Positions 2,143 to 56,298 of a stretch of DNA of 57,440 nucleotides are shown here, piece after piece (the first letter of the stretch is position 1; each line of letters opens with the position of its first letter). The notes below the pieces were generated by a model that saw only the letters and a program-made list of their open reading frames with translations, did not search any database and had not been told where the DNA came from. Both the position numbers and the translations under genes were made by a program. This stretch comes from Clostridia bacterium (GTDB lineage: Bacteria > Bacillota > Clostridia > Oscillospirales > CAG-272), in the NCBI GenBank assembly GCA_017628755.1, contig JAGBYM010000025.1:1-57440 (forward strand), read 5' to 3'.

Positions 2143-4020
2143 ATGAAAAAGGTCATTACAACCCTTCTGGCACTCTGCATGATTCTCTCGATCTGCTCGT
2201 TCCAGATCTCCGCCGATACTGTCGGCACACCTATCACAAACGAGGCTGAATTCCTTGCAATGAAGGAAGACGGCTACTACTACCTCGCAAATGACATCAC
2301 CGTAACTAAGTCTTATGAACAGTTGTTCACCGGCGTATTCGACGGTAACGGCAAGACTGTAACCGTAACCGGCGAGCCTATGTTCTGGGAATTCTGCGGT
2401 AAGGCAAAGGACCTCACCATCAACGGTGAGATCGTTGCTGACCACGCTAAGGACAACGGCTACTGGGCACGCGGCGCATTCGCTTGTATGGTTTCCGGCG
2501 AAGGCACCATTACTCTCTACAACATAACCAACAACGCTAACGTAACCGGCTTTGCTACTCAGGATGCTGCATACTCCCTCCTTGGCAACGCTTACACCGG
2601 CGGTATCATCGGTGCGCTCGACAACAAGTCTGTTGGTACTGAAGCATCCATCGAGATCATCAACTGTGTAAACAACGGTAACGTTACCGGCTGGCACTGC
2701 ACCGGCGGTATCACCGGTATCCTCTACGTTAACGACTCCTCTTACACCGGACTTACCTGCGTTGTTACCAACTGTACCAACAACGGTTCTATCAACAGCC
2801 TTAACCAGTATGCCGGCGGTATCGTAGGCCGTGTATACTATGCTCTCGACGCTAAGTTCACCGGCTGTATCAACAACGGTGCAATCACCGGTTACAGCAA
2901 CATCGGCGGTATCATCGGTCACACCACCGCTTCCAGCGCTATCATCAGCGTCTGCCAGAACAACGGTGAGATCGCAACCACCACTGACGAAGCTTCCTCT
3001 GCATACGCAGGCGGTATCATCGGTTACGCTCAGGGTACCAATGACCCCAACCACTCCGCTGACTACGGCGAGATGGCAAGCCGCATCGAATTCTGTATCA
3101 ACACCGGTAACGTTTCCAGTATGCGTAGAACCGGCGGTATCGTAGGTTCTTCCGGCGGCGACAGCGCATACGGTATCACATACGTTGATTACTGCATTAA
3201 CACCGGTAACGTTACCAACTACGGTACCGTAAACGGTTCTCACGCACAGGGTTGCGCAGGCGGTATCCAGGGTTACGGATACGGCTCCAAGTCCAAGCCT
3301 CAGTACACCATCATGTCCAACTGTATCTCTACCGGTAACGTTGAATCCCGTAACGCTGAGTACGGTATCGCAGCTTACCTCCTTGGCTACATCAGCTCCG
3401 ATCTCGCTATCCTTAAAAACAACCGCGCTTCCGGTCTTCTTGTCTCCGGCGCAAACAAGACTTACTGCTTCGGTTGGAATAACAACGCTCTCGGTTACTC
3501 CGATGAGTCTACCGGCAACCTCTTCCCCGATAACAACACCTTCCAGATCGCTGCTGATGCAAGTGTTGACGCATGCAAGGGCTACGTAGTCGGCGTTTTC
3601 GATCAGTCCGTTCTCATTTCCGGCGAAGCTATCGCTGAGTTCAACGCAGCTTACAAGCAGCTGAACGGCGCAACCACAGACTGCATGAGCCAGAAGATCG
3701 ACGGTGCATTCAATCCTCAGATCGTAGTTCTTGAGGCTACAGCTCCCGAGTTCCCTGCTCCTTCCGCAGAGCCCGAGACCACTCCCGCTCCCGAGACCAC
3801 CAAGGCTCCCGAGCCCGAGACCACTCCCGCTCCCGAGACCACCGCTGAGCCCGAGCAGACCAATGCTCCCGAAGCTACCGATCCCGCAACTCCCGAGCAG
3901 ACCGACGCTCCCGCAAACACCGAGCCCGCTGAAAAGAAGGGCTGCGGCGGATTCGTTGCAGGAGGCATCGTTATCGTTGCTCTTCTCGGCACCGCTCTTG
4001 TTATCAAGAAGAAAGACTAA
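2143..4020 (+). CDS. Secreted GLUG-repeat surface protein (paralog of 211-1929) with long PETT-type linker and a C-terminal TM anchor
   Basis: RBS AAAGGA. Signal peptide MKKVITTLLALCMILSICSFQISA. N-terminus is collinear with gene 1 (ITxEAEFLAM...YYLANDIT(I/V)TKSYE). Repeated CxNNG...GGI(I/V)G motifs. Linker PETTPAPETTKAPEPETTPAPETT. Tail GCGGFVAGGIVIVALLGTALVIKKKD. Confidence 0.85.
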   Translation: MKKVITTLLALCMILSICSFQISADTVGTPITNEAEFLAMKEDGYYYLANDITVTKSYEQLFTGVFDGNGKTVTVTGEPMFWEFCGKAKDLTINGEIVADHAKDNGYWARGAFACMVSGEGTITLYNITNNANVTGFATQDAAYSLLGNAYTGGIIGALDNKSVGTEASIEIINCVNNGNVTGWHCTGGITGILYVNDSSYTGLTCVVTNCTNNGSINSLNQYAGGIVGRVYYALDAKFTGCINNGAITGYSNIGGIIGHTTASSAIISVCQNNGEIATTTDEASSAYAGGIIGYAQGTNDPNHSADYGEMASRIEFCINTGNVSSMRRTGGIVGSSGGDSAYGITYVDYCINTGNVTNYGTVNGSHAQGCAGGIQGYGYGSKSKPQYTIMSNCISTGNVESRNAEYGIAAYLLGYISSDLAILKNNRASGLLVSGANKTYCFGWNNNALGYSDESTGNLFPDNNTFQIAADASVDACKGYVVGVFDQSVLISGEAIAEFNAAYKQLNGATTDCMSQKIDGAFNPQIVVLEATAPEFPAPSAEPETTPAPETTKAPEPETTPAPETTAEPEQTNAPEATDPATPEQTDAPANTEPAEKKGCGGFVAGGIVIVALLGTALVIKKKD

Positions 4021-7971: not shown

Positions 7972-7990
7972 TTAAACCCTAAGGCAATAT

Positions 7991-8100
7991 TAATCGCCTG
8001 CGGCGAATGATGATCTGCTTCGCAGAATGATAATCGCCGCAGGCGAATGATAGTTTGCTACGCAAAATGAAGGTGAATTTTCGCCGAAGCGAAAATTTTC
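7991..8100 (+). repeat. Mini-hairpin array, copy A (4 units at exact 20-nt period plus terminal TGAAGGT-hairpin module)
   Basis: Units TCGCC-TGC-GGCGA (7994-8006), TCTGC-TTC-GCAGA (8014-8026), TCGCC-GCA-GGCGA (8034-8046), TTTGC-TAC-GCAAA (8054-8066), separated by AATGAT(G/A)A. Then AATGAAGGTGAATTT and hairpin TTTTCGC/GCGAAAA with a T-run (8078-8099). Confidence 0.85.
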
Positions 8101-8195
8101 GATTATTATTAAATCACGCATAAAATCTTGCAGAATACAATAGGATGATTTAATAAAGATCGAAAATTTCCGAGCATCGCGAGTAAATTCACCTT
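8070..8195. repeat. About 126-bp imperfect palindrome built from three collinear 11-bp inverted-repeat pairs
   Basis: AAGGTGAATTT (8070-8080) / AAATTCACCTT (8185-8195). AAATTTTCGAT (8093-8103) / ATCGAAAATTT (8159-8169). TTATTAAATCA (8106-8116) / TGATTTAATAA (8146-8156). Confidence 0.8.
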
Positions 8196-22089: not shown

Positions 22090-22998
22090 TTGAGTAAATT
22101 TTCTTTGTTTTTCGGCGCGGGAACGGCACTCCCGACGCCATTTGAGCAAAGCGGCGAGCTCGACCTTGAATCCTACCGCAAGCTTCTGCGTTTTCAGCTC
22201 GATTCGGGTATCGACGCGCTTCTCGTCTGCGGCACCACGGGTGAGGCACCGACGCTCTCGGACGATGAGGCGACAACCCTCCTTTGCGAGACGGTAAGAA
22301 CGGCGCAAAGATGCGTTCCCGTCATTATGGGAGTCGGATCAAACTGCACCGCGCACGCAGCCGAAAAGGCACGTCAGGCAGAAAAAAACGGCGCCGATGC
22401 TCTGCTTGCCGTCACGCCGTATTATAACAAATGCACCCCCGAGGGGCTTGTCCGACACTACCGTGAAATTGCCTCGGCAACCTCTCTTCCCATCATCGCA
22501 TACACCGTTCCCTCGCGCACGGGAATGACGATCCCGCCGAGCATTTGGGGCGAGCTTTTCGCCATTCCAAACATGATCGGCATCAAGGACGCGACTGGGG
22601 ACATCGCCTACGGAGCGCAATTTTTGTCTCATTTCGGGAGTGAGATCTGCCTCTGGTCAGGCAACGATAACGCCACTCTTCCCCTGCTTTCGCTCGGTTC
22701 TGAGGGTGTAATTTCAGTGCTTTCAAACATAAAACCGAAGGAGACTTCAAGGCTCTGCCACGCCTTCGCCGAGGGCAAAATAGGCGAAGCGCAAGCCCTC
22801 GCAAACGCGCTTTTACCCCTCTCCGACGCCCTCTTCTGCGAGGTAAATCCCATCCCCGTCAAAGCCGCGCTGTCGATAATGGGACTTTGCAAACCCTATT
22901 GCAGAATGCCGCTGACGACGGCGAGTGAAAGTACGTTCAAAAAGCTTGAAAGATTGCTAATCTCGCTTCGCTCGAATGATAATCTGCCTTCGGCATAA
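22090..22998 (+). CDS. dapA: 4-hydroxy-tetrahydrodipicolinate synthase
   Basis: TTG at 22090 is preceded by AAAGGAGAG. GAGTALPTPF, CGTTGE, PYYNK and IIGIKDATGD motifs. The last ~13 codons and the stop lie inside repeat copy B. Confidence 0.9.
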   Translation: MSKFSLFFGAGTALPTPFEQSGELDLESYRKLLRFQLDSGIDALLVCGTTGEAPTLSDDEATTLLCETVRTAQRCVPVIMGVGSNCTAHAAEKARQAEKNGADALLAVTPYYNKCTPEGLVRHYREIASATSLPIIAYTVPSRTGMTIPPSIWGELFAIPNMIGIKDATGDIAYGAQFLSHFGSEICLWSGNDNATLPLLSLGSEGVISVLSNIKPKETSRLCHAFAEGKIGEAQALANALLPLSDALFCEVNPIPVKAALSIMGLCKPYCRMPLTTASESTFKKLERLLISLRSNDNLPSA

Positions 22999-23050
22999 TG
23001 ATCGTCGGCTACGCCGAATGATAATTTGCCTGCGGCAAAATGAAAGGTAA
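22961..23050 (+). repeat. Mini-hairpin array, copy B
   Basis: Units TGCC-TTC-GGCA, TCGGC-TAC-GCCGA and TTTGCC-TGC-GGCAAA with AATGAT(A/C) spacers. Ends AAATGAAAGGTAAC, directly before the terminator at 23052. Confidence 0.8.
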
Positions 23051-23051
23051 C

Positions 23052-23079
23052 AAAAAATCGGGGATATCCCCGATTTTTT
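23052..23079. terminator. Bidirectional Rho-independent terminator
   Basis: AAAAAATCGGGG-ATAT-CCCCGATTTTTT. Confidence 0.85.
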
Positions 23080-23091
23080 GTTTTATTTTTA

Positions 23092-32099: not shown

Positions 32100-32362
32100 A
32101 TTTAATCAAACTTGGCGGATAGAGATATAATTCGCAAAAATCCCGCAGTTGCGCATTCTCCTTCCACCACTTCCGTGGTCCCCCTCCCTCCCGGAGGGAG
32201 GCAAGGAGTATGTGCGAACACCGTTTGTTTTTCTATGGCGTCTATATGATTATTATTTTGAAAAGCTGTGTTCGCACTCGCAATCTCGGCTCCCTCTGAG
32301 GAGGGAGCTGTCGCGAAGCGACTGAGGGAGAGATTGAAAAATTTCTAAATATCGTAGCGAGG
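32100..32362 (-). repeat. Field of heterogeneous GC-rich short hairpins adjoining array copy C
   Basis: ACCAC-TTCC-GTGGT (32166-32179). CCTCCCT-CCCGG-AGGGAGG (32183-32201). GTGCGAACAC (32212-32221) / GTGTTCGCAC (32268-32277). GCTCCCTC-TGAG-GAGGGAGC (32289-32308). GTCGC-GAA-GCGAC (32310-32322). Confidence 0.75.
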
Positions 32363-32456
32363 AAATTCACCTTCATTTTGCCGTAGGCAAATTATCATTC
32401 CGCCATAGGCGGATTACCATTCGGCGTAGCCGATTATCATTCACGCGAAGCGTGAT
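32363..32456 (-). repeat. Mini-hairpin array, copy C (reverse orientation on the + strand; co-directional with tcdA)
   Basis: + strand reads GAAATTCACCTTCATT, then TTTGCC-GTA-GGCAAA (32377-32391), TCCGCC-ATA-GGCGGA (32399-32413), TCGGC-GTA-GCCGA (32421-32433) and TCACGC-GAA-GCGTGA (32441-32455), with ATTA(T/C)CATT spacers. Confidence 0.85.
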
Positions 32457-33148
32457 AAGTTTCTTATAATGTGTCCCGCCATTATAAGTCCCACTGCGCC
32501 GGGAACAAATGACAGGCTTCCGGGAATATTCCTTCCGTTTTCGGCGCCGAGTCCCTGCGCCTTGATCGGTTCTTCGTCCGACCAGACAACGTCGAGCTTC
32601 CCCACGCCCTTTTCCTTCATCTTCTTGCGCATTATCTTCGCAAGCGGGCAGACGCTCGTTTTGCTTATATCGGATATGCGGAAACGCTCGGGGTAGAGCT
32701 TGTTGCCCGCACCCATAGAGGCGATCACTGGCACTCCCGCCGCATCGGCGCGGCATATAAGCTCAACCTTCGCCGCAACCGTGTCAACGGCATCGGCAAT
32801 GAAATCAAATTGCGAGAGGTCGATCTCATCGGCGTTTTCGGGCAGATAGAAGAGGTTGATTGCGTGCACCTTGCATTCGGGATTGATCGAAAGAATGCGC
32901 TCCGCCATGATCTCGGCTTTCGATCTGCCGACGGTGTCCTGCGTTGCGATTATCTGGCGGTTTACGTTGGAAGCAGAGACCGTGTCACCGTCAATGACGG
33001 TCAGCTCACCGACTCCCGCGCGCGCCAAAGCCTCGCAAAGATGTCCACCAACGCCGCCGAGTCCGAAGACCGCAACGTGCGAGTTACGTAATCTTTCCAC
33101 ACCACCGTCACCAAGCAACGCCCGCGTGCGTGTATCGTCAAGTTGCAT
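32441..33148 (-). CDS. tcdA: tRNA threonylcarbamoyladenosine dehydratase (ThiF/MoeB-fold, TcdA/CsdL)
   Basis: VAVFGLGGVGGHLCEALARAGVGELTVIDGDTVSASNVNRQ. 235 aa. The last 5 codons and the stop are supplied by hairpin unit 32441-32455. Confidence 0.85.
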   Translation of the reverse strand: MQLDDTRTRALLGDGGVERLRNSHVAVFGLGGVGGHLCEALARAGVGELTVIDGDTVSASNVNRQIIATQDTVGRSKAEIMAERILSINPECKVHAINLFYLPENADEIDLSQFDFIADAVDTVAAKVELICRADAAGVPVIASMGAGNKLYPERFRISDISKTSVCPLAKIMRKKMKEKGVGKLDVVWSDEEPIKAQGLGAENGRNIPGSLSFVPGAVGLIMAGHIIRNLSRFA

Positions 33149-33897: not shown

Positions 33898-35409
33898 ATG
33901 AAACTCAATTACAAACGCACGCTATTCGTCGGATTCGCATTCTTCCTCATCTGCGCTTTCTGGCAGGCTTACGACACCATCGTTCCGAAAATTCTTACCG
34001 ACCGCTTCGGTATGTCTCAGTTCTGGTCGGGCGCGATCATGGCGATCGATAACATTCTCGCGCTCTTTCTCCTCCCCCTCTTCGGCATCCTCTCGGACAG
34101 AACAAAATCCAAGCTCGGACGCCGCACACCCTTCATCATCGTCGGTACTTTGATCGCGGCAACCGCGCTCATCTCGCTCTCCTTCGTGGATTCGATGCAG
34201 CTTAACCGTCTCGGCAATATCGCTGACATCAATTCCGAGGAAGCACGCACCGTCCTTTACGATTACGACTACGGCGGACCCCTTGCAACCCCCGACGGCG
34301 AAGAATACGTTCTCGCTGAACTCGGACGCGAGGATTTCATCAAGATCCCCGCAACTCTTGAGGACGGCAAGGCAAATCCCGACTACACGAACTACGTTGT
34401 TCCCGCGCGTTCGGCTTATATCGCGCAGGAGATCGTCGGCAAGGATCCCTCCGCGCTGATAACCTTTATCGCGGTGCTCTTTGTCCTTCTGCTTTCAATG
34501 GCAACCTTCCGTACACCCGCAGTCGCGCTCATGCCCGACGTCACGCCGCGTCCGCTCCGTTCTAAAGCTAACGCCGTTATCAACCTCATGGGTACCATCG
34601 GCGGAAGCCTGATCCTCGGACTCGGTATGGTCCTTTCCACCGGCTCAACGAATAACACATATATGCCTTACACCGGCTATTTCTGCATCGTCGCGGGAAT
34701 AATGCTCGTCAGCCTTGTCGTCTTCATCGCAACCGTCCGCGAGCGCAAGTTCGTTGCCGAAATGGAAGAGGTCAGCCGCGAGCAAAATATCAAGGAGGGC
34801 AACGACGAGGACGAGGCTGCGGGAAGCCGCAAGCTTTCGGCATCCGAGAGAGTTTCTCTCATCCTCCTGCTTGCATCCGTTGTTCTCTGGTTCTTCGGCT
34901 ACAACGCCGTAACAAGCAAATACTCGGTCTACGCGGGACGCGTTCTCCAGCTTGACTACAACTCCACCCTTCTCGTTGCAAACATTGCCGCACTTATCGC
35001 ATACCTCCCTGTTGGTATGATCGCAACCAAGGTCGGAAGAAAGAAGACGATCCTTGCGGGCGTCGTTATGCTCAGCGGAGCATTCCTGACCGCATCCTTC
35101 CTCGACGCGGGTACTCCCCTGCCCGTTATGATGATCCTCTTTGCCATTGCAGGTATCGGATGGGCGACCATTAACGTCAACTCCTTCCCCATGGTCGTTG
35201 AGCTTGCGCGCGGCGGCAACGTCGGTAAGTACACCGGCTTCTACTACACCGCAAGTATGGCGGCGCAGACGATCACTCCCCTTGTATCCGGCTTTCTTAT
35301 GGACACCCTTGGCATGAAGACCCTCTTCCCCTACGCCGCGATTTTTGCCGCAGGCGCATTCATCACAATGCTCTTCGTTCGCCACGGAGACTCCAAACCC
35401 ACGAAATGA
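33898..35409 (+). CDS. MFS transporter (about 12 TM, with a large hydrophilic insertion after TM3)
   Basis: RBS AAAGGAG. The hydrophobicity pattern fits an MFS transporter. LSDRTKSKLGRRTPF loop motif. 503 aa. Confidence 0.75.
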   Translation: MKLNYKRTLFVGFAFFLICAFWQAYDTIVPKILTDRFGMSQFWSGAIMAIDNILALFLLPLFGILSDRTKSKLGRRTPFIIVGTLIAATALISLSFVDSMQLNRLGNIADINSEEARTVLYDYDYGGPLATPDGEEYVLAELGREDFIKIPATLEDGKANPDYTNYVVPARSAYIAQEIVGKDPSALITFIAVLFVLLLSMATFRTPAVALMPDVTPRPLRSKANAVINLMGTIGGSLILGLGMVLSTGSTNNTYMPYTGYFCIVAGIMLVSLVVFIATVRERKFVAEMEEVSREQNIKEGNDEDEAAGSRKLSASERVSLILLLASVVLWFFGYNAVTSKYSVYAGRVLQLDYNSTLLVANIAALIAYLPVGMIATKVGRKKTILAGVVMLSGAFLTASFLDAGTPLPVMMILFAIAGIGWATINVNSFPMVVELARGGNVGKYTGFYYTASMAAQTITPLVSGFLMDTLGMKTLFPYAAIFAAGAFITMLFVRHGDSKPTK

Positions 35410-38712: not shown

Positions 38713-38726
38713 TCGATATTACTGCA

Positions 38727-38842
38727 ATCGGGCTTCGCCCGAATGGTTATTGGCTTCGCCAAATGATTATCGGCAAAGCCGAATGATGATTCGCCCAAGG
38801 GGCGAAATGAAGGAAATTTTTCGCCACTTGGCGAAAAATCAT
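38727..38842 (+). repeat. Mini-hairpin array, copy D
   Basis: ATCGGGC-TTC-GCCCGAT-like, TGGC-TTC-GCCA, CGGC-AAA-GCCG and TCGCCC-AA-GGGGCGA units with AATG(G/A)TTAT / AATGATGAT spacers. Then AAATGAAGGAAATTTTTCGCC-ACTT-GGCGAAAAAT. Confidence 0.8.
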
Positions 38843-38861
38843 AAATATAATTGAGGTAAAA

Positions 38862-50103: not shown

Positions 50104-50190
50104 CAATTCATTCCTTTCGTACTTTTGCCATCCGGAATGATTTTAACACAGAAAAATGTCGTATGACTGACAGAAAGCTGTCGGAAGAAT

Positions 50191-50364
50191 AGTTGTTAGT
50201 TATTAGTTGCTAGTTGAATGATAATTTCTTCGCGTTGCTCAGAAATTTTCCTATTATAATAAAAAACTCGGATATTCCAAAAGCGGAATATCCGAGTAAA
50301 TTATTGAATTGATTTTCGACTTGTCGAAAATCTACCTTCAACTAGCAACTAATAACTAGCAACT
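50191..50364 (-). repeat. MITE-like unit: 28-bp inverted repeats (27/28) flanking a 118-bp core that holds the terminator of the surface-protein gene
   Basis: AGTTGTTAGTTATTAGTTGCTAGTTGAA (50191-50218) versus TTCAACTAGCAACTAATAACTAGCAACT (50337-50364). The core contains AATGATAAT, a CTCGGATATTCC hairpin and the GAAGGTAGATTTTCGAC-AAGT-GTCGAAAATC module (minus-strand reading). Confidence 0.75.
50261..50297 (-). terminator. Rho-independent terminator of gene 50378-52123
   Basis: ACTCGGATATTCC (50266-50278) / GGAATATCCGAGT (50285-50297). A6 on the + strand gives a T-run on the transcript. Confidence 0.8.
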
Positions 50365-50377
50365 AGCAACTGAAAAC

Positions 50378-52123
50378 TTAGTTTTCTCTTCTCTTAGCAA
50401 CAACTGCAACACCGATAACGGAAACAGCTGCGATAATTGCGAAGACTACGAAGGAGTCACCGGTCTCACCGGATACGGGAGGCTCAGTGGTCTCGGGAGC
50501 GGGCTCGGTGGTCTCGGGAGCCGGCTCGGTCTCTACGGGAGGAACGTAGTTAGCAACGTCGGTAAGAGTACCCTTGTAGAGAGCAGCATCCTTGATACCG
50601 AGAGTGCACATATCGTGGTAGAGATATACGCCGCATGCAACCTGAGGTGCGCCTGCGAACTCTGCAGCAGTGCCGTTGTAGGTCTCGAAGAGTACCCACT
50701 CACCTGCAGCATCCTTGTAGTAGAGGCTCCAGGAGTAACCGTCAACGGTTACAGCCATATCAGCATAACCCTCTGCGTCGAACGCGATGTTCTTATCAAG
50801 AGCGGAGAACTTGGTGTAGGAGGTGGTCTTTACGGTCTCGTGACCCTTGATCTTGGTGCCGCTGATGCAAACAACCATATCGGAATCTGCGGAGCCGTTG
50901 AGGTTGCCGTAGAAGTTGTAGAGCTGAGCCCAGTTATACTTCATATTGGTCTCATCAAGGTTGAAGAATACGCCGCCGCGGAGCTCGTTGGTCTTTACCT
51001 TGTAGGTGAAGGTGTAAACGGTGTCAGCGGTGTACTCAAGAGAACCGATCGCGCCGCCCCACCAGGTAGCACCCTGGCCTGCGTCCTTCATATTAGCATC
51101 GGTGGGCTTATCAAAGTCGATCTGCTTGCCATCGTCGGAGATGGTGATGATGGGATCGGTACCGGTAAGATTGAGCATCTGAGGAGCGAAATCAGTGCCG
51201 TTCTTGAAGAGAATGTCGGTAAGCTTAGCGCCAAGGCCTGCCTTTTCGTAAGCATCCATAGTAAGAGTCTTTGCGTTGAGCATCATTGCGCCGGACCAGT
51301 CAAGCTTCTCTGCGCCTTCGCGGAGTGCGGGATAGGTGAAGCCCTTAGCGGTGTAGATGTTACCCTCGTATACAACAGCATCCTTGAAGGTTACGGAGCC
51401 TGCGTTGTAAACGTAGAAAATAAGAGCGAGATCGTCATAGTTGTTTGCAAAGGGAATATAGCCCTCGTCAAAGAACTCACCGTTGATGAATACACGGTAA
51501 ACAAAACCGTCTACTTCAATGGAAACCTTGCAGAAGCCCTCTGCATCGGGAGTGTAAATGCCGCCAACATAGTTGGTTGCATCACTTACGTAAAGACCGT
51601 AGTCCTTGCTGCCCGCGCCGCGGGAAAGAGTGTTCTTGGGTGTGCCGTTCCAGCCCTCGGGGGTTCCGTAGTAGCCGCGGAGAGCGTTCATGGTATCGGT
51701 ATACTTGCTGTTGTTGGGATTAATTGCAGCCCAATCGCCATCAACTACATCCTTGTTACCGTTGATGTAAACACCAAAGTTCTGCATAGCACTCTTGCCT
51801 TCGATGGAGTTGTCAGCAAGAACTTCAACAGTGTACTTCTTGTCTGCGCCAAGCTTGAGACCGTCAATTACGTCACCGTAGAAGTATCTCTTACCCTTGG
51901 TGATAACGGTTACGGTTGCTGCATTACCGTCCTCGGAAACTTCCGAGGTAACGCCGTCTGCCTTATCGTTTGTGGCAAACATTTTGAATGTGTACTTGTC
52001 GTCGTTCTTAAAGTTGATCTTATGGAGAACGTCGCCTTCCTTAGCGGAGGTCGAGATACCCATAGCAGCAACAAGAGCGAGGATCATAGTGAGTGCGAGA
52101 ATTGCGCTGAGGATCTTTTTCAT
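50378..52123 (-). CDS. Secreted surface protein with two tandem lectin/ConA-like (DUF1080-like) jelly-roll domains, PETTEP linker and TGDSFV...AKRREN C-terminal sorting-signal-like anchor
   Basis: Signal peptide MKKILSAILALTMILALVAAMGISTSA. Two ~250-aa halves, ending ...VTFKDAVVYEG and ...LGIKDAALYKG. Tail PETTEPPVSGETGDSFVVFAIIAAVSVIGVAVVAKRREN. Confidence 0.8.
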   Translation of the reverse strand: MKKILSAILALTMILALVAAMGISTSAKEGDVLHKINFKNDDKYTFKMFATNDKADGVTSEVSEDGNAATVTVITKGKRYFYGDVIDGLKLGADKKYTVEVLADNSIEGKSAMQNFGVYINGNKDVVDGDWAAINPNNSKYTDTMNALRGYYGTPEGWNGTPKNTLSRGAGSKDYGLYVSDATNYVGGIYTPDAEGFCKVSIEVDGFVYRVFINGEFFDEGYIPFANNYDDLALIFYVYNAGSVTFKDAVVYEGNIYTAKGFTYPALREGAEKLDWSGAMMLNAKTLTMDAYEKAGLGAKLTDILFKNGTDFAPQMLNLTGTDPIITISDDGKQIDFDKPTDANMKDAGQGATWWGGAIGSLEYTADTVYTFTYKVKTNELRGGVFFNLDETNMKYNWAQLYNFYGNLNGSADSDMVVCISGTKIKGHETVKTTSYTKFSALDKNIAFDAEGYADMAVTVDGYSWSLYYKDAAGEWVLFETYNGTAAEFAGAPQVACGVYLYHDMCTLGIKDAALYKGTLTDVANYVPPVETEPAPETTEPAPETTEPPVSGETGDSFVVFAIIAAVSVIGVAVVAKRREN

Positions 52124-52304: not shown

Positions 52305-52373
52305 CTTATTTTATTTATTTAATTTTCGACTTGTCGAAAATTTTCCTTCAACTAGCAGCTAATAACTAGCAAC

Positions 52374-54029
52374 TTAGTTCTCGCGTCTCTTAGCAACAAC
52401 TGCTACGCCGATAACAGCAACTGCTGCGATAGCTGCGAATACTACGAAGGAGTCACCGGTCTCACCGGATACGGGAGGCTCAGTGGTCTCGGGAGCGGGC
52501 TCGGTGATAACGGGATCAAGCTTGCCCTCGGGATCGGTGATAAGGAGGCCCTTGTATACGTTGATGTCCTTGTACTCTGCTACAAGATCCTTGTTATTAA
52601 GGGTAAGGCAAACTGCAAGGTCAAAGCCGGTGTCGTGGATGTACTCAGCAGAACCGTCGTTCTTGGTGGTGTGAGTCATATCTACCTTGGTGTAGAGCTC
52701 CCAGTTACCCTCGGTGTTGAGGTAGTAAGCGGTGAACTCATAGCCGTGAAGCTCAGCGCGGAGGCTTGCGTAGCCTTCTGCGTCAAGTGCCATGTTGGAA
52801 ACCGAAGCATAACCGTTGGAAGCGAGCTCTCTTACCTGGTTGAGAACCTTGTTTGCACCGTGCTGGGTAGCGATACCGCCGGTCTTGAAGTTACCGTAGA
52901 GTGCAATGGAGTTGCCAAAGGGATAAAGGGTGGGAACTGCAAAGCCGAAACCTGCATTCTGAGCAGAGGTCTTGATCTTCACGTCGTAGGTATATCTGGT
53001 CTCGGAGTTTACTTCAAGACCTTCAATGATACCGCCGTAGTAGGTGGTACCTGCCTTGCCGCCGGTGTTCTCGATCTTGATGTAACCGGGGTTAGCGGGA
53101 TCGATGGTTGCGGTGTAGAGATTGTCGTTGGAAGCTACGAAACGGCCGTAGAAGCCGGTATCTTTTCTGGTGAAGTCAGCGGTGAAGAGGAGGTCGCCGG
53201 TTCTTGAGGACTCATAATTGGTAACCTTTGCACCCTCTACGTAGTAGTCGGGGTATGTGGGGTTGGTAACGGTGATACCCTCGTAAACCTTAACGTCCTT
53301 GAAGGTAACGGATGCACTCTTGTTGTAGAGGTAGATTACGAAGCCGAGGCTTTCAGCCTTGTCAAGGAGACCCTCGTTGAATGCATCAAACTCATCGAGA
53401 TATACGTTGTTGATGTAAACCTTAACGTTCTTGCCGTCAACTGCGAATGTGAGGTCAACGAAGCCCTCGGAGTCAACAGTGGAGAGGTACTTAGCATCGG
53501 TGATGTAAACGTCTTCGCTGATGAGAGCGCCGACGGACTTACCGCCTGCACCGTAGCTGAGGGTGTGGCGGATGTTGGGACAGCCGTAGTATCCAACAAG
53601 GGATTTGTAACCCTGATCAAGGAGATACTTAGCATCGGTAGAAGTAGGCATATTGATGTATACGCCTGCGTTACCGGAAGCGAGCTTACCGTCGGTATCG
53701 GTGTAAGCAACAGCCATCTTCATGGTGATGGTGTACTGCTTGCCTTCGCCGTAGGTGAAACCCTTGATAGCTCCACCCCAGAATGCGCGGCCTGCAGCAG
53801 CGTCTGCGCTGTAGGTAGCGGTAACGGAGGAACCGTCATCGGAAGGAACTGCGGTGATAACGTCATCACCGTTAAGGCAGGAGAACTTTGCGGGAGCAAA
53901 CTTGTCGTCGCCCTTGAAGTTAACTGTGTAGAGAAGGTCGCCGTCCTTAGCGGAAGCGGTGATTCCCATAGCAGCAACGAGAGCAAGGATCATTGTGAGT
54001 GCGAGAATTGCGCTGAGGATCTTTTTCAT
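52374..54029 (-). CDS. Secreted surface protein, paralog of 50378-52123 (two lectin/ConA-like domains, same signal peptide and same C-terminal anchor)
   Basis: The track ORF runs to 54638 but the true start is MKKIL at 54029 (or MKSIM at 54041). The signal peptide is nearly identical to the paralog. Domain ends ...VTFKDVKVYEG and ...AEYKDINVYKG. Tail PETTEPPVSGETGDSFVVFAAIAAVAVIGVAVVAKRREN. Confidence 0.8.
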   Translation of the reverse strand: MKKILSAILALTMILALVAAMGITASAKDGDLLYTVNFKGDDKFAPAKFSCLNGDDVITAVPSDDGSSVTATYSADAAAGRAFWGGAIKGFTYGEGKQYTITMKMAVAYTDTDGKLASGNAGVYINMPTSTDAKYLLDQGYKSLVGYYGCPNIRHTLSYGAGGKSVGALISEDVYITDAKYLSTVDSEGFVDLTFAVDGKNVKVYINNVYLDEFDAFNEGLLDKAESLGFVIYLYNKSASVTFKDVKVYEGITVTNPTYPDYYVEGAKVTNYESSRTGDLLFTADFTRKDTGFYGRFVASNDNLYTATIDPANPGYIKIENTGGKAGTTYYGGIIEGLEVNSETRYTYDVKIKTSAQNAGFGFAVPTLYPFGNSIALYGNFKTGGIATQHGANKVLNQVRELASNGYASVSNMALDAEGYASLRAELHGYEFTAYYLNTEGNWELYTKVDMTHTTKNDGSAEYIHDTGFDLAVCLTLNNKDLVAEYKDINVYKGLLITDPEGKLDPVITEPAPETTEPPVSGETGDSFVVFAAIAAVAVIGVAVVAKRREN

Positions 54030-54078
54030 GATAGATTTCATTTCATAATTTTCGGTCTTGCCGAATTGATACATTATA

Positions 54079-54107
54079 ATCATACCACTTTTGTAAGCTT
54101 TTGTCAA
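54079..54107 (-). promoter_or_regulatory. Sigma-70-type promoter of gene 52374-54029
   Basis: Minus-strand TTGACA (54102-54107), 17-nt spacer, TATGAT (54079-54084). Collinear with the paralog promoter at 52173-52201. Confidence 0.6.
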
Positions 54108-54124
54108 GGGAAATATGTTTTTTC

Positions 54125-54153
54125 TTGACAAAATCATGTCAATATGATAATAT
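54125..54153 (+). promoter_or_regulatory. Sigma-70-type promoter of the sigma-factor operon
   Basis: TTGACA (54125-54130), 17-nt spacer, TAATAT (54148-54153). Confidence 0.55.
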
Positions 54154-54209
54154 TTATGTGATGCAAGAGCCAAAAATTCCGTTATTATGGGTGAAAGGAG
54201 ATTGATATT

Positions 54210-54761
54210 ATGGAAGACAAACAGATAATAGAACTTTATTTTGCCCGAAACGAATCCGCGATCGCCGAGACCGACAAAAAATACGGCGCATACTGCCGCG
54301 CCGTCGCTTACCGCATTCTCGAAGATCATCTCGATTCCGAAGAGATCGCAAACGACACCTATCTTCGCCTCTGGAACAGCATTCCACCGCAGAAGCCCGA
54401 CCCGCTCAAGCCCTACGTCGGACGCATCAGCCGCAATCTCGCTCTCGACGTTTACGATGCCAAGCACGCTAAAAAGCGGCGCGGGGTCACGATCGCTCTT
54501 GAAGAGCTCGCCGAATGTCTGCCCTGCGAGGACGGACGCGAGATCGGTGAATCCGCCGCGCTCAGCGACCTGCTCTCGCGCTTTATTTCGTCGCTGCCCG
54601 AACGTGAAAAAATCATTTTCGTACGCCGTTATTTCCATCTTTACCCGATTACCGAGATCGCGCGCGACCTCGGACTCAATGAAAGCACAACGGCAATGAC
54701 CCTTTCGCGCATCCGTGCAAAGCTCCGCAAATATCTTGAGAAGGAGGGCATTTCGCTATGA
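54210..54761 (+). CDS. ECF-like sigma-70 family RNA polymerase sigma factor (regions 2 and 4)
   Basis: RBS AAAGGAG. IELYFARNESAIAETDKKYGAYC..., DTYLRLWNSIPP (region 2), and a region 4 HTH ITEIARDLGLNESTTAMTLSRIRAKLRKYL. 183 aa. Confidence 0.85.
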   Translation: MEDKQIIELYFARNESAIAETDKKYGAYCRAVAYRILEDHLDSEEIANDTYLRLWNSIPPQKPDPLKPYVGRISRNLALDVYDAKHAKKRRGVTIALEELAECLPCEDGREIGESAALSDLLSRFISSLPEREKIIFVRRYFHLYPITEIARDLGLNESTTAMTLSRIRAKLRKYLEKEGISL

Positions 54762-55825: not shown

Positions 55826-56176
55826 TTCCCCTCCCTGTTCAAGGGAGGGGAGTGAGGGGTGGGTCCCTTTTTACAAATTCAAAATTATCAGGATATCGGC
55901 GAGGACTCTGTGGGCGCGCAAAATTACCTGAACCAATTCCGCAGAAAAACGAAATCTCTATAGAAAACGCGCGCCGGACTGGCGCGCGAGGATAAAGGAG
56001 CGAAAATTTCCCGCAAGGGAAATTTTACTCCTTTCAAGCGGTCACCGAGGACGGCGACCGCTTGAAGCACAGGAAAGAGTTTCGCGCTCTGCGGAGCGCG
56101 ACAAGGGCTTCGCGCCCTTGACTGCGCCACCTTTTGAAAAAGGTGGACGAAAACTTTCCCGCTTTTAACTAAAAAT
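55826..56176 (-). repeat. Field of at least 8 consecutive heterogeneous GC-rich hairpins adjoining array copy E
   Basis: CCCCTCCCT-GTTCA-AGGGAGGGG (55828-55850). CGCGCGCC-GGACT-GGCGCGCG (about 55967-55989). AAAGGAG.GAAAATTTCCC-GCAA-GGGAAATTTT.CTCCTTT (55994-56034). CAAGCGGTC...GACCGCTTG (56035-56065). TCGCGCTC-TGCG-GAGCGCGA (56081-56100). CAAGGGC-TTCGC-GCCCTTG (56102-56120). CCACCTTT-TGAA-AAAGGTGG (56127-56146). Confidence 0.8.
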
Positions 56177-56298
56177 GAAAATTTCCGCCTCGGCGGAAAT
56201 TAACCTTCATTTTGCCGAAGGCAAATTATCATTCGCCGAAGGCGATTATCATTCTCGCGCAGCGAGATAACCATTCACGCGTAGCGTGACTATCATTC
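56177..56298 (-). repeat. Mini-hairpin array, copy E (co-directional with typA/bipA)
   Basis: + strand reads AATTTCCGCC-TC-GGCGGAAATT, TAACCTTCATT, then TTTGCC-GAA-GGCAAA (56211-56225), TCGCC-GAA-GGCGA (56233-56245), TCTCGC-GCA-GCGAGA (56253-56267) and TCACGC-GTA-GCGTGA (56275-56289), with ATTATCATT / ATAACCATT spacers. Confidence 0.85.

Follow-up and report, generated by a model that had tools for sequence, protein, structure and literature searches.

Tandem mini-hairpin arrays at gene boundaries of gut Clostridia: a dispersed modular repeat family and sister of Gut-1

Repetitive extragenic palindromic sequences and bacterial interspersed mosaic elements (REP/BIME) are high-copy extragenic palindromes found at gene 3′ ends and in operons, sometimes a few nucleotides from stop codons, for which roles in mRNA 3′-end protection and attenuation have been proposed. 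The mycobacterial interspersed repetitive units (MIRU) are intercistronic tandem repeats of 46-101 bp that overlap stop and start codons, contain small open reading frames (ORFs), are polar with transcription and vary in copy number between strains. The pneumococcal BOX element, built as boxA-boxB(n)-boxC, is slow to transpose and is thought to affect co-transcribed genes through RNA structure (Croucher et al., 2011; PMC3049150). Gut-1 (RF01706) was described as human-gut sequences that are likely a non-coding RNA (Weinberg et al., 2010; PMC2864571), and its seed loci hold arrays of small hairpins with GUGAUAU/GUGAAAU linkers that follow a stop codon and an annotated terminator and have inverted partner arrays (PMC2864571). 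Rfam files it under “Gene; sRNA” (small RNA), and in the literature it is mentioned by the original paper alone. Here we analyze a family of tandem mini-hairpin arrays present in five copies (A to E; Table 1) in a 57,440-nt stretch of DNA from a Clostridia bacterium (contig JAGBYM010000025.1 of assembly GCA_017628755.1; the whole stretch is called the window below). The family is a clade-specific, high-copy, non-coding modular repeat spread over many unrelated intergenic sites, and it is a sub-threshold sister of Gut-1.

An element of this family measures about 110-140 nt and has two parts: a variable number of 20-22-nt units in a row, in which a GC hairpin of 4-6 bp with a 3-nt loop is followed by a 9-nt AATGATAAT linker, and a constant terminal module, in which T(G/A)AAGG precedes a larger AT-flanked hairpin with an AT-rich tail. 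In the window copies the mini-hairpins are T-closed GC stems of 4-6 bp with 3-4-nt loops, joined by (G)AATGATAAT or near variants; the last linker is AAATGAAGG in copies A, C, D, and E and AAATGAAAGG in copy B, and the larger AT-flanked hairpin lies 3′ of it. A preliminary description of this DNA had proposed that five loci share one architecture, and this was confirmed by reading all five at their coordinates, by Tandem Repeats Finder (TRF), which called tandem arrays at 5/5 loci, and by a scan with the pattern AATGRTNRTTNGCN{3,7}GCNAAATGAARG, which spans the last linker, the last hairpin, and AAATGAARG and gave five matches in the window, all of them copies A-E, vs none in 100 shuffles. Paired linkers (AATGRT-N13-18-AATGRT) matched 11 times in the window, always within the five loci, with 0.14 matches expected. 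The same description gave three to four units per copy; the tandem units are present, but reading the sequence shows exactly four mini-hairpins in every copy. The 20-nt period it reported for copy A is exact. Its constant array end with an AT-flanked hairpin holds for copies A, D, and E, but not for copy B, which has a variant linker and a canonical bidirectional terminator, nor for copy C, in which the hairpin is degenerate. The flanking genes were correctly named, Pfam identifying them as AcnX swivel (small subunit), DHDPS (dapA), ThiF (tcdA), SCIFF, and TypA.

The copies differ in how they meet their neighbors. Copy A starts 20 nt past the stop codon of the AcnX small-subunit gene, with a cation-efflux gene 130 nt further downstream; its first hairpin (hp1) is T-CGCC-TGC-GGCG-A, its linkers are, in order, AATGATGAT, AATGATAAT, and AATGATAGT, and on the opposite strand each of its units reads as a hairpin plus TTATCATT. 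The hp1 of copy B has the tandem-mismatch form CTCGC-TTC-GCTCG, and the dapA frame continues through units 1-2 of this copy to a stop at 22996-22998; in the ortholog of copy B (L080; L numbers denote loci from relatives) the array is kept and the terminal hairpin is of the family type. In copy C, hp1 (32455-32441) encodes the final codons of tcdA/ThiF, whose TGA stop (32443-32441) is the TGA of the first linker. Array units thereby encode the last 5-13 codons and the stops of both dapA (22961-22998) and tcdA (32441-32455), and the array-encoded tail of dapA is conserved in L080. Copy D sits between the T-run of the SCIFF terminator and the ribosome-binding site of the radical-SAM maturase gene. 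Copy E begins directly 3′ of the typA terminator T-run, and its ortholog L041 has three hairpins vs four.

Table 1. Coordinates of hairpin-type copies (A-E) and heptamer-type elements (F-H) in the window.
Feature	Position	Strand	Content and basis
Copy A, whole element	7991..8112	+	Sequence; TRF; pattern match 8046-8073; Gut-1 model 31.2 bits at 7985-8058
Copy A, hairpin array	7994..8066	+	hp1 7994-8006, hp2 8014-8026, hp3 8034-8046, hp4 8054-8066; exact 20-nt period
Copy A, terminal module	8065..8097	+	AAATGAAGG 8065-8073; hairpin AATTTTCGC-CGAA-GCGAAAATT 8076-8097; then AT-rich tail
Copy B	22959..23083	+	Sequence; pattern match; Pfam; canonical bidirectional terminator 23050-23081 in place of terminal hairpin
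Copy C	32336..32457	-	Sequence; pattern match; Gut-1 model; Pfam; ortholog in L046
Copy D	38715..38851	+	~137-nt block, bounds from empty orthologous sites; sequence; pattern match
Copy E	56163..56298	-	Sequence; Gut-1 model 34.3 bits; pattern match; terminal hairpin 56201-56180, tail TTCATTTTT
Element F	50190..50266	+	Heptamer array 50190-50216; AATGATAAT 50217-50225; terminal-type hairpin 50223-50247; TRF and linker matches
Element G	50305..50378	-	Heptamer array from stop codon of gene 50378..52123; TGAAGG; terminal hairpin TAGATTTTCGACAAGTCGAAAATC
Element H	52305..52373	-	Heptamer array right after TAA stop (52376-52374) of gene 52374..54638; GAAGG; hairpin AAAATTTTCGACAAGTCGAAAATT

The pattern was also run against a collection holding one genome per species, from which the window’s own genome is absent. 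It returned 90 stretches, nearly all from 11 metagenome-assembled genomes (MAGs) of uncultured Eubacteriales/Clostridia bacteria from animal guts, three being obvious chance matches. Beyond the window, about 100 copies are known from 11 or more genomes of uncultured Clostridia of animal guts, with many copies at contig ends, and the possibility of a local coincidence, raised in the preliminary description, can be set aside. Syntenic loci with 80-89% identity hold orthologs of copies B, C, D, and E. A sequence identical to the window is present in ENA sample ERZ27256945, and a search with the AcnX small subunit matched the same strain only, so an empty counterpart for copy A was not obtained. 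A metagenome scan with the window protein 33898-35409 gave 798 kb of sequence from 80 relatives, which are about 63% identical at the protein level; it contained no arrays and provided no empty sites. Viral-contig, plasmid, and phage collections contained no arrays either. The view of these loci as an interspersed structured family that is neither CRISPR nor protein-coding is supported. A CRISPR array, which would have 23-50-nt conserved repeats and unique spacers of similar length, is ruled out by a conserved part of 9 nt and a variable part that is an 11-15-nt palindrome from a small repertoire (the sole CRISPR-DR model match was weak, at 18 bits), and mini-ORFs (ATG...TGA in the 20-nt units) are absent from the 22-nt units and are without ribosome-binding sites.

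Within the family, the hairpins are actively kept, because single unpaired stem mutations are almost never seen. Across 340 internal units, which have a period of 22 nt in 204 cases and 20 nt in 76 and in which the linkers AATGATGAT, AATGATAAT, and AATGATAGT occur 111, 97, and 72 times, perfect Watson-Crick stems number 309, with 25 arm sequences; shuffling the 3′ arms gave a mean of 64 and a maximum of 86. An alignment of 60 copies had 93.6% of its cells paired vs 77.7% in shuffles (32-51% in slid controls) and double-sided changes in 177 cells vs 56 in shuffles, and 0/500 shuffles matched the observed pairing or double-sided change values. One-sided (wobble) changes are nearly absent from this alignment, and a raw tally of about 1970 pairs contains 10 G:T and 12 A:C. 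The stems of orthologous units were identical in 53 cases, differed by one change in 2, and by two or more in 12. Palindromic stems are therefore a property of the additional copies as well as of the five in the window.

The arrays also turn over by whole units. Elements have between one and six hairpins across the family, with the first hairpin, last hairpin, and terminal module conserved, and the number of units is unequal in 22/47 orthologous pairs whose flanks are about 90% identical. One locus in three close relatives (L025, L049, and L048; flank identity 89-96%) has 5, 3, and 1 units, respectively, and in L024 vs L090 the middle hairpins are entirely different while the first and last hairpins and the terminal module are the same. 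Middle units are replaced wholesale, not mutated stepwise, while the two end units and the terminal module are retained. At an orthologous site the whole element can likewise be missing or present as one block. Several species have an identical 48-aa SCIFF peptide, so that SCIFF-maturase spacers can be compared directly: the spacer is empty, at 53-54 nt, in four loci (L091, L093, L096, and L097), one of which belongs to a MAG (JAFOEU) that has arrays elsewhere, and it is filled in L094, L095, L098, L099, and L100, measuring 177-184 nt in the window and three others. Filled and empty spacers differ by one block (38715-38851 in the window) between the terminator T-run and the maturase ribosome-binding site; in L095 the array has a second, ~75-nt element nested in it and is without the terminal module. 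Neither a terminal inverted repeat (TIR) nor a target-site duplication (TSD) was found at this filled vs empty site, where the ends have only TAATC in common; both are features of miniature inverted-repeat transposable elements, from which the family differs in this respect.

The preliminary description recognized no named repeat family here, and at the Rfam gathering threshold there is indeed no match in the window. In E-value mode, however, Gut-1 aligns end to end with window arrays (model positions 1-77) at 31.2, 34.3, and 25.2 bits, its gathering score being 50. On the relatives L010, L092, and L017, with linkers AGTGATAAT or GTGATAT, the model scores 40-48 bits (48.2, 40.7, 40.5), and the scores across copies form a continuum just below the threshold of 50 bits. 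The window copies show the Gut-1 architecture of three or more tandem short hairpins with conserved, UGA-containing single-stranded linkers. Both groups have tandem small GC hairpins with C(UNC)G loops and RUGA(U/A)A(A)U linkers, a last hairpin UUGCCUGCGGCA, a place after a gene stop and terminator, and inverted tail-to-tail partners, and both are known only from uncultured gut bacteria. They differ in the linker (AAUGAUAAU in the window vs GUGAAAU/GUGAUAU in Gut-1) and in that the Rfam model has three hairpins and does not include the terminal module that the window elements possess. Gut-1 itself received a single sentence of description, which presented it as a candidate sRNA and not as a repeat that is dispersed and indel-polymorphic. 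It has stood in Rfam as an orphan “sRNA” since 2010, known from gut metagenomes alone, and the present comparison recasts Gut-1-type arrays as a dispersed, fast-evolving repeat superfamily. The SCIFF-maturase site has been struck by different members of this superfamily: the spacer in L092 (2650-2900) contains an inverted pair of Gut-1-type arrays (linkers GTGATAT / ATATCGT; 40.7 bits), just downstream of the SCIFF terminator and ahead of an inserted 23S_rRNA_IVP-family gene.

Where the arrays sit relative to genes was examined for about 100 copies with a codon-usage gene caller that reproduces the window’s genes. Twenty-four copies lie between convergent genes, 18 in tandem spacers in the sense direction, 18 in tandem spacers in the antisense direction, and 6 between divergent genes. 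The fixed polarity behind genes that the preliminary description reported is true of the window, where all five copies are co-oriented with the upstream gene, but copies B and E are little informative because between convergent genes any orientation is “sense” to one neighbor; family-wide the rule fails, given that tandem sites are evenly split and convergent sites uninformative. After manual grouping of orthologs, hp1 points towards a gene 3′ end at about 36 independent loci and towards a start at about 14, which fits a simple preference for gene ends, on either side. The constant feature, whichever way an array points, is that its hp1 end abuts a gene boundary, which is either a stop codon or a ribosome-binding site. 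The distance between this end and the stop codon is 0-15 nt in sense copies, and the TAA or TAG of that stop often forms the “TAAT/TAGT” head of the first unit; alternatively, the hp1 end directly follows the T-run of a terminator. Antisense copies have their hp1 end next to the ribosome-binding site, at 12-22 nt from the start codon. At the other end, 100-500 nt usually separate the terminal module from the next gene. Arrays are present within operon-like spacers in both orientations and are therefore not strong terminators either way. Each gene has its own array, tail to tail, in 14/24 convergent regions, and 23/88 arrays have an inverted partner, mostly between convergent genes. No clear link was seen between hp1 type and gene context. 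As a separate observation, AATGGTTAT, which is without stops, is more frequent in arrays that follow strong terminators (typA, SCIFF).

The explanation that we favor, with a confidence somewhat better than even, is that these elements are a Gut-1-type modular repeat which, like REP/BIME or BOX, would act through transcript structure. The 9-nt direct-repeat linkers would allow units to be added, deleted, and exchanged through slippage or template switching, whole elements would spread as non-autonomous DNA, and any cellular effect would be exerted in cis on whichever transcript holds the element. A row of stable hairpins beside a coding region would block exonucleases and insulate neighboring cistrons, and the terminal hairpin would serve as a weak terminator. 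This role is proposed because the same has been proposed for REP/BIME and for pneumococcal BOX (PMC3049150). The comparison with REP/BIME, already drawn in the preliminary description, is fair as a functional analogy: both are high-copy extragenic palindromes at gene 3′ ends, within operons, and near stops. REPs have sequence-conserved stems, a GTAG-type head, and inverted pairs, whereas the window family has variable stems and direct tandem units, its conserved parts being the linkers and the terminal module. BOX shares constant end modules, a variable internal tandem unit, and restriction to a narrow clade, but there is no sequence relation, boxB is a 45-nt unit and not a mini-hairpin plus linker, and the BOX ends pair together while the window family shows no end-to-end pairing or TIR (PMC3049150); the resemblance is one of modular design, not of homology. 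MIRU resemble the family as operon-spacer tandem repeats whose copy number varies and which overlap stop and start codons; they differ in lacking the hairpin-plus-linker design.

Several observations weigh against this explanation. An RNA-level role is suggested by analogy only. A simple terminator consensus scan called the terminal hairpin in copy E only, not in A or C, and copy B has a different, canonical terminator. Copies right behind strong terminators (D, E, and others) would seldom be sense-transcribed, yet their hairpins are intact. Wobble pairs are essentially absent on both strands, which is unusual for a purely RNA-selected structure. The T-N-C loops and the TC/TC mismatch are unremarkable on the top strand, while on the complement they are GNA/GNNA loops and tandem sheared G.A pairs, which points to the complementary strand or to single-stranded DNA. 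Finally, there is one clean filled/empty site only, without TIR or TSD, and the elements may have grown in situ.

Should a function come to light, it would bear on hundreds of sites in each genome of these Clostridia, which are abundant in the gut. Counting the heptamer-type elements described below, an element occurs about every 7 kb in the window, about a sixth of gene ends are touched, and the stop codons of two enzymes are supplied by arrays. The annotation of such motifs is affected, as is MAG assembly, given the many copies at contig ends. The near absence of wobble, the one-strand GNA loops and tandem G.A pairs, the unit-wise turnover, and the constant terminal module are concrete features open to test.

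Because of the GNA/GNNA loops and the tandem G.A signature, the selected fold could instead be that of the complementary strand or of single-stranded DNA (ssDNA). The complement would form a row of d(GCGNAGC)-type mini-hairpins acting as substrate or signal for an ssDNA enzyme, for example an HUH/Y1 transposase (as with REP/RAYT or IS200/IS605 derivatives) or a primase, or as a site of single-stranded DNA-binding protein exclusion, and this would also explain the spread of the family; we consider it unlikely. GCGNAGC and GCGNNAGC are documented DNA mini-hairpins that contain a sheared G.A pair, are exceptionally stable, resist nucleases, and are found at priming sites of phages and plasmids (Hirao; PMC13037366), and their stability depends on the closing pair (PMC3201870). 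The motif, with its C-G closing pair and sheared G.A, occurs in the complement of most units. It is a structural motif, not a genetic element, and its known natural sites are single hairpins at phage or plasmid priming sites and promoters, not chromosomal tandem arrays. Top-strand loops are T-N-C or T-N-N-C in 285/340 units (TTC 152, TGC 79, TAC 30, and also TTGC and TTAC tetraloops), which the bottom strand reads as C(GNA)G or C(GNNA)G, and TCC never occurs, so that the GGA loop form is never seen on the bottom strand; GCTTCGC is the complement of d(GCGAAGC). The sole recurrent internal mismatch is CTCGC-N3-GCTCG (79 vs 46 for the perfect form), which on the bottom strand is a tandem sheared G.A in a C-GA-G context, and 23/24 tandem mismatches in the terminal hairpin are of this CTCGC/GCTCG kind. 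Wobble pairs are tolerated no more than A:C mismatches, and a filled/empty site without TIR or TSD is as in HUH elements.

Other evidence tells against a DNA-level fold. ssDNA transposons and REPs are usually strand-biased, but array orientation shows no correlation with GC skew (42 vs 40), and the window copies lie on both strands within one skew regime. This rules out replication polarity, the second kind of orientation raised by the preliminary description. Searches by tblastn with E. coli RayT and with an IS200 TnpA sequence found nothing in the 737 kb around the roughly 100 arrays, which is a weak test; the best hit (E = 0.067) was a metallo-beta-lactamase-like ORF. Conservation ends 2-3 nt 5′ of hp1, with no conserved cleavage or guide sequence, and stem sequences vary, unlike those of REPs. 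The suggestion that the arrays are HUH/RAYT substrates is thus not upheld, as there is no conserved GTAG-type head, the units are direct and not inverted, and no RayT/IS200-like gene turned up in that weak search; the 25 stem types, the end of conservation before hp1, and the direct-repeat units argue against a RAYT-type REP. In addition, the array part of the heptamer variants has no hairpins, tandem G.A pairs and GNA/GNRA loops are also favorable in RNA, and A/G variation at a linker position able to pair with U fits the top strand. Neither strand was singled out by predicted folding energies. Taken with the absence of wobble, the strand-specific G.A signature leaves room for a DNA-level reading or a one-way transcription barrier.

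A related and rather unlikely proposal makes the 20-22-nt hairpin-plus-linker unit the replicating entity, copied or exchanged only if it can fold, with the fold again on the complementary strand. Foldability-dependent copying would yield perfect stems without wobble and all-or-none stem replacement, and Gut-1 and its kin would be self-renewing arrays, not sRNAs. If this were true, they would constitute a superfamily in which a constant terminal module anchors hairpin arrays that renew themselves and serve as ssDNA or as an orientation-specific transcription barrier.

Such a one-way barrier has its own rationale, although we hold it to be quite improbable. On the bottom strand each GC hairpin is followed by UUAUCAUU, so that an array would be a row of weak intrinsic terminators, halting transcription that arrives from the terminal-module side, such as convergent read-through into a gene 3′ end; sense transcription would pass because the sense linkers are A-rich. 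Units are terminator-like only on the opposite strand (2 in copy A, 2 in E, and 3 in C, with 0.2-1.0 expected), the bottom-strand loops are of the GNA/GNRA type, and arrays are commoner between convergent than between divergent genes (24 vs 6), and in convergent regions each gene has its own outward-facing array in 14/24 cases. Eighteen tandem-antisense copies, however, lie 12-40 nt upstream of a same-strand start codon. There is no promoter room between array and start codon, so a real terminator row would silence the downstream gene. The stems are of 4-6 bp only, and the U-tract is interrupted.

That the arrays are stand-alone sRNAs or protein sponges, whose single-stranded linkers titrate a multimeric RNA-binding protein or are cut by an endoribonuclease, appears very improbable. 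Conserved linkers beside variable stems are the pattern expected of protein-recognized single-stranded motifs, Rfam and Weinberg et al. (2010) class Gut-1 as a likely non-coding RNA, and consecutive linkers in copy E give a promoter-like ATGATA-16-GATAAT. Against this, no consistent promoter was found upstream of the arrays, a promoter scan of the copies was not above shuffles, and many arrays begin at a stop codon, within a coding region, or after a terminator T-run; the density of about 8 per 57 kb in the window, the highly variable unit number, and the occurrence of either orientation relative to genes are also unfavorable. Among specific candidates of this kind, a type III toxin-antitoxin RNA array is ruled out, the downstream genes being unrelated housekeeping or convergent genes. 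The linker also contains TGATAAT, a half-site of the Firmicute 7-1-7 Fur box; a Fur box is ruled out by the lack of an inverted partner half-site.

We give next to no credence to an all-frame translational stop barrier, in which arrays at the stop codon would end the travel of read-through or frameshifted ribosomes before the mRNA end: the linker does read TGA-TRR with TAA 113, TGA 99, TAG 70, and TGG 3 (window and L001-L090; Fisher p about 1e-12), the 20- and 22-nt periods shift the frame, the heptamer variant amounts to (TAG-N4)n from the stop codon, and the dapA and tcdA stops are array-encoded, but both stops are intact in 91% of antisense vs 94% of sense copies, all three frames are covered in 20/29 antisense vs 26/40 sense copies, and the TGG deficit may reflect history, as variants spread by copying. 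With the stops kept equally well in antisense copies, there is no support for selection through translation.

Three further window elements (F, G, and H; Table 1) have the terminal module in common with the arrays, with TAGTTRY heptamer repeats replacing the hairpin units, and bring the total of hairpin- and heptamer-type elements to about eight in 57 kb. Elements F and G are arranged tail to tail around one common terminator, and 2/3 of these window elements start exactly at a stop codon. Heptamer-type elements occur also in L022 (two), L047, and L096, most beginning at a stop codon; their terminal module consists of T[GA]AAGG, an ATTTTCG...CGAAAAT hairpin, and an AT tail. The heptamer resembles the junction of linker and last hairpin, GA-TAGTTTGC.

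Other repeats accompany the arrays. Downstream of copy E, at 55990-56165 on the minus strand, lies a hairpin-rich sequence of ~180 nt, “module 2” (gcgggaaagtttt ... aggagtaaaat...), for which no credible Rfam family was found and which recurs right after arrays at L013, L017, L018, L036, L039, L056, L060, L083, and L096. A second small element of ~75 nt (tatttgccttcggcaaatgtcgactctgtctcggcggctaaacaccgccgttttccaaaggaaaaccgccagagccg) is nested within the hairpin arrays of L016, L036, L066, and L095. Positions 106-430 of L095 form a ~325-nt palindrome that scores 70-79 bits on both strands with a plant miRNA precursor model, far under its threshold, and is probably another large inverted repeat. 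Within coding regions of the window, in-frame tandem repeats at 3769-3929 (18/42 nt, gene 2143..4020) and 50476-50541 (21 nt, gene 50378..52123) encode Pro/Glu/Thr-rich linkers and are unrelated to the hairpin arrays.

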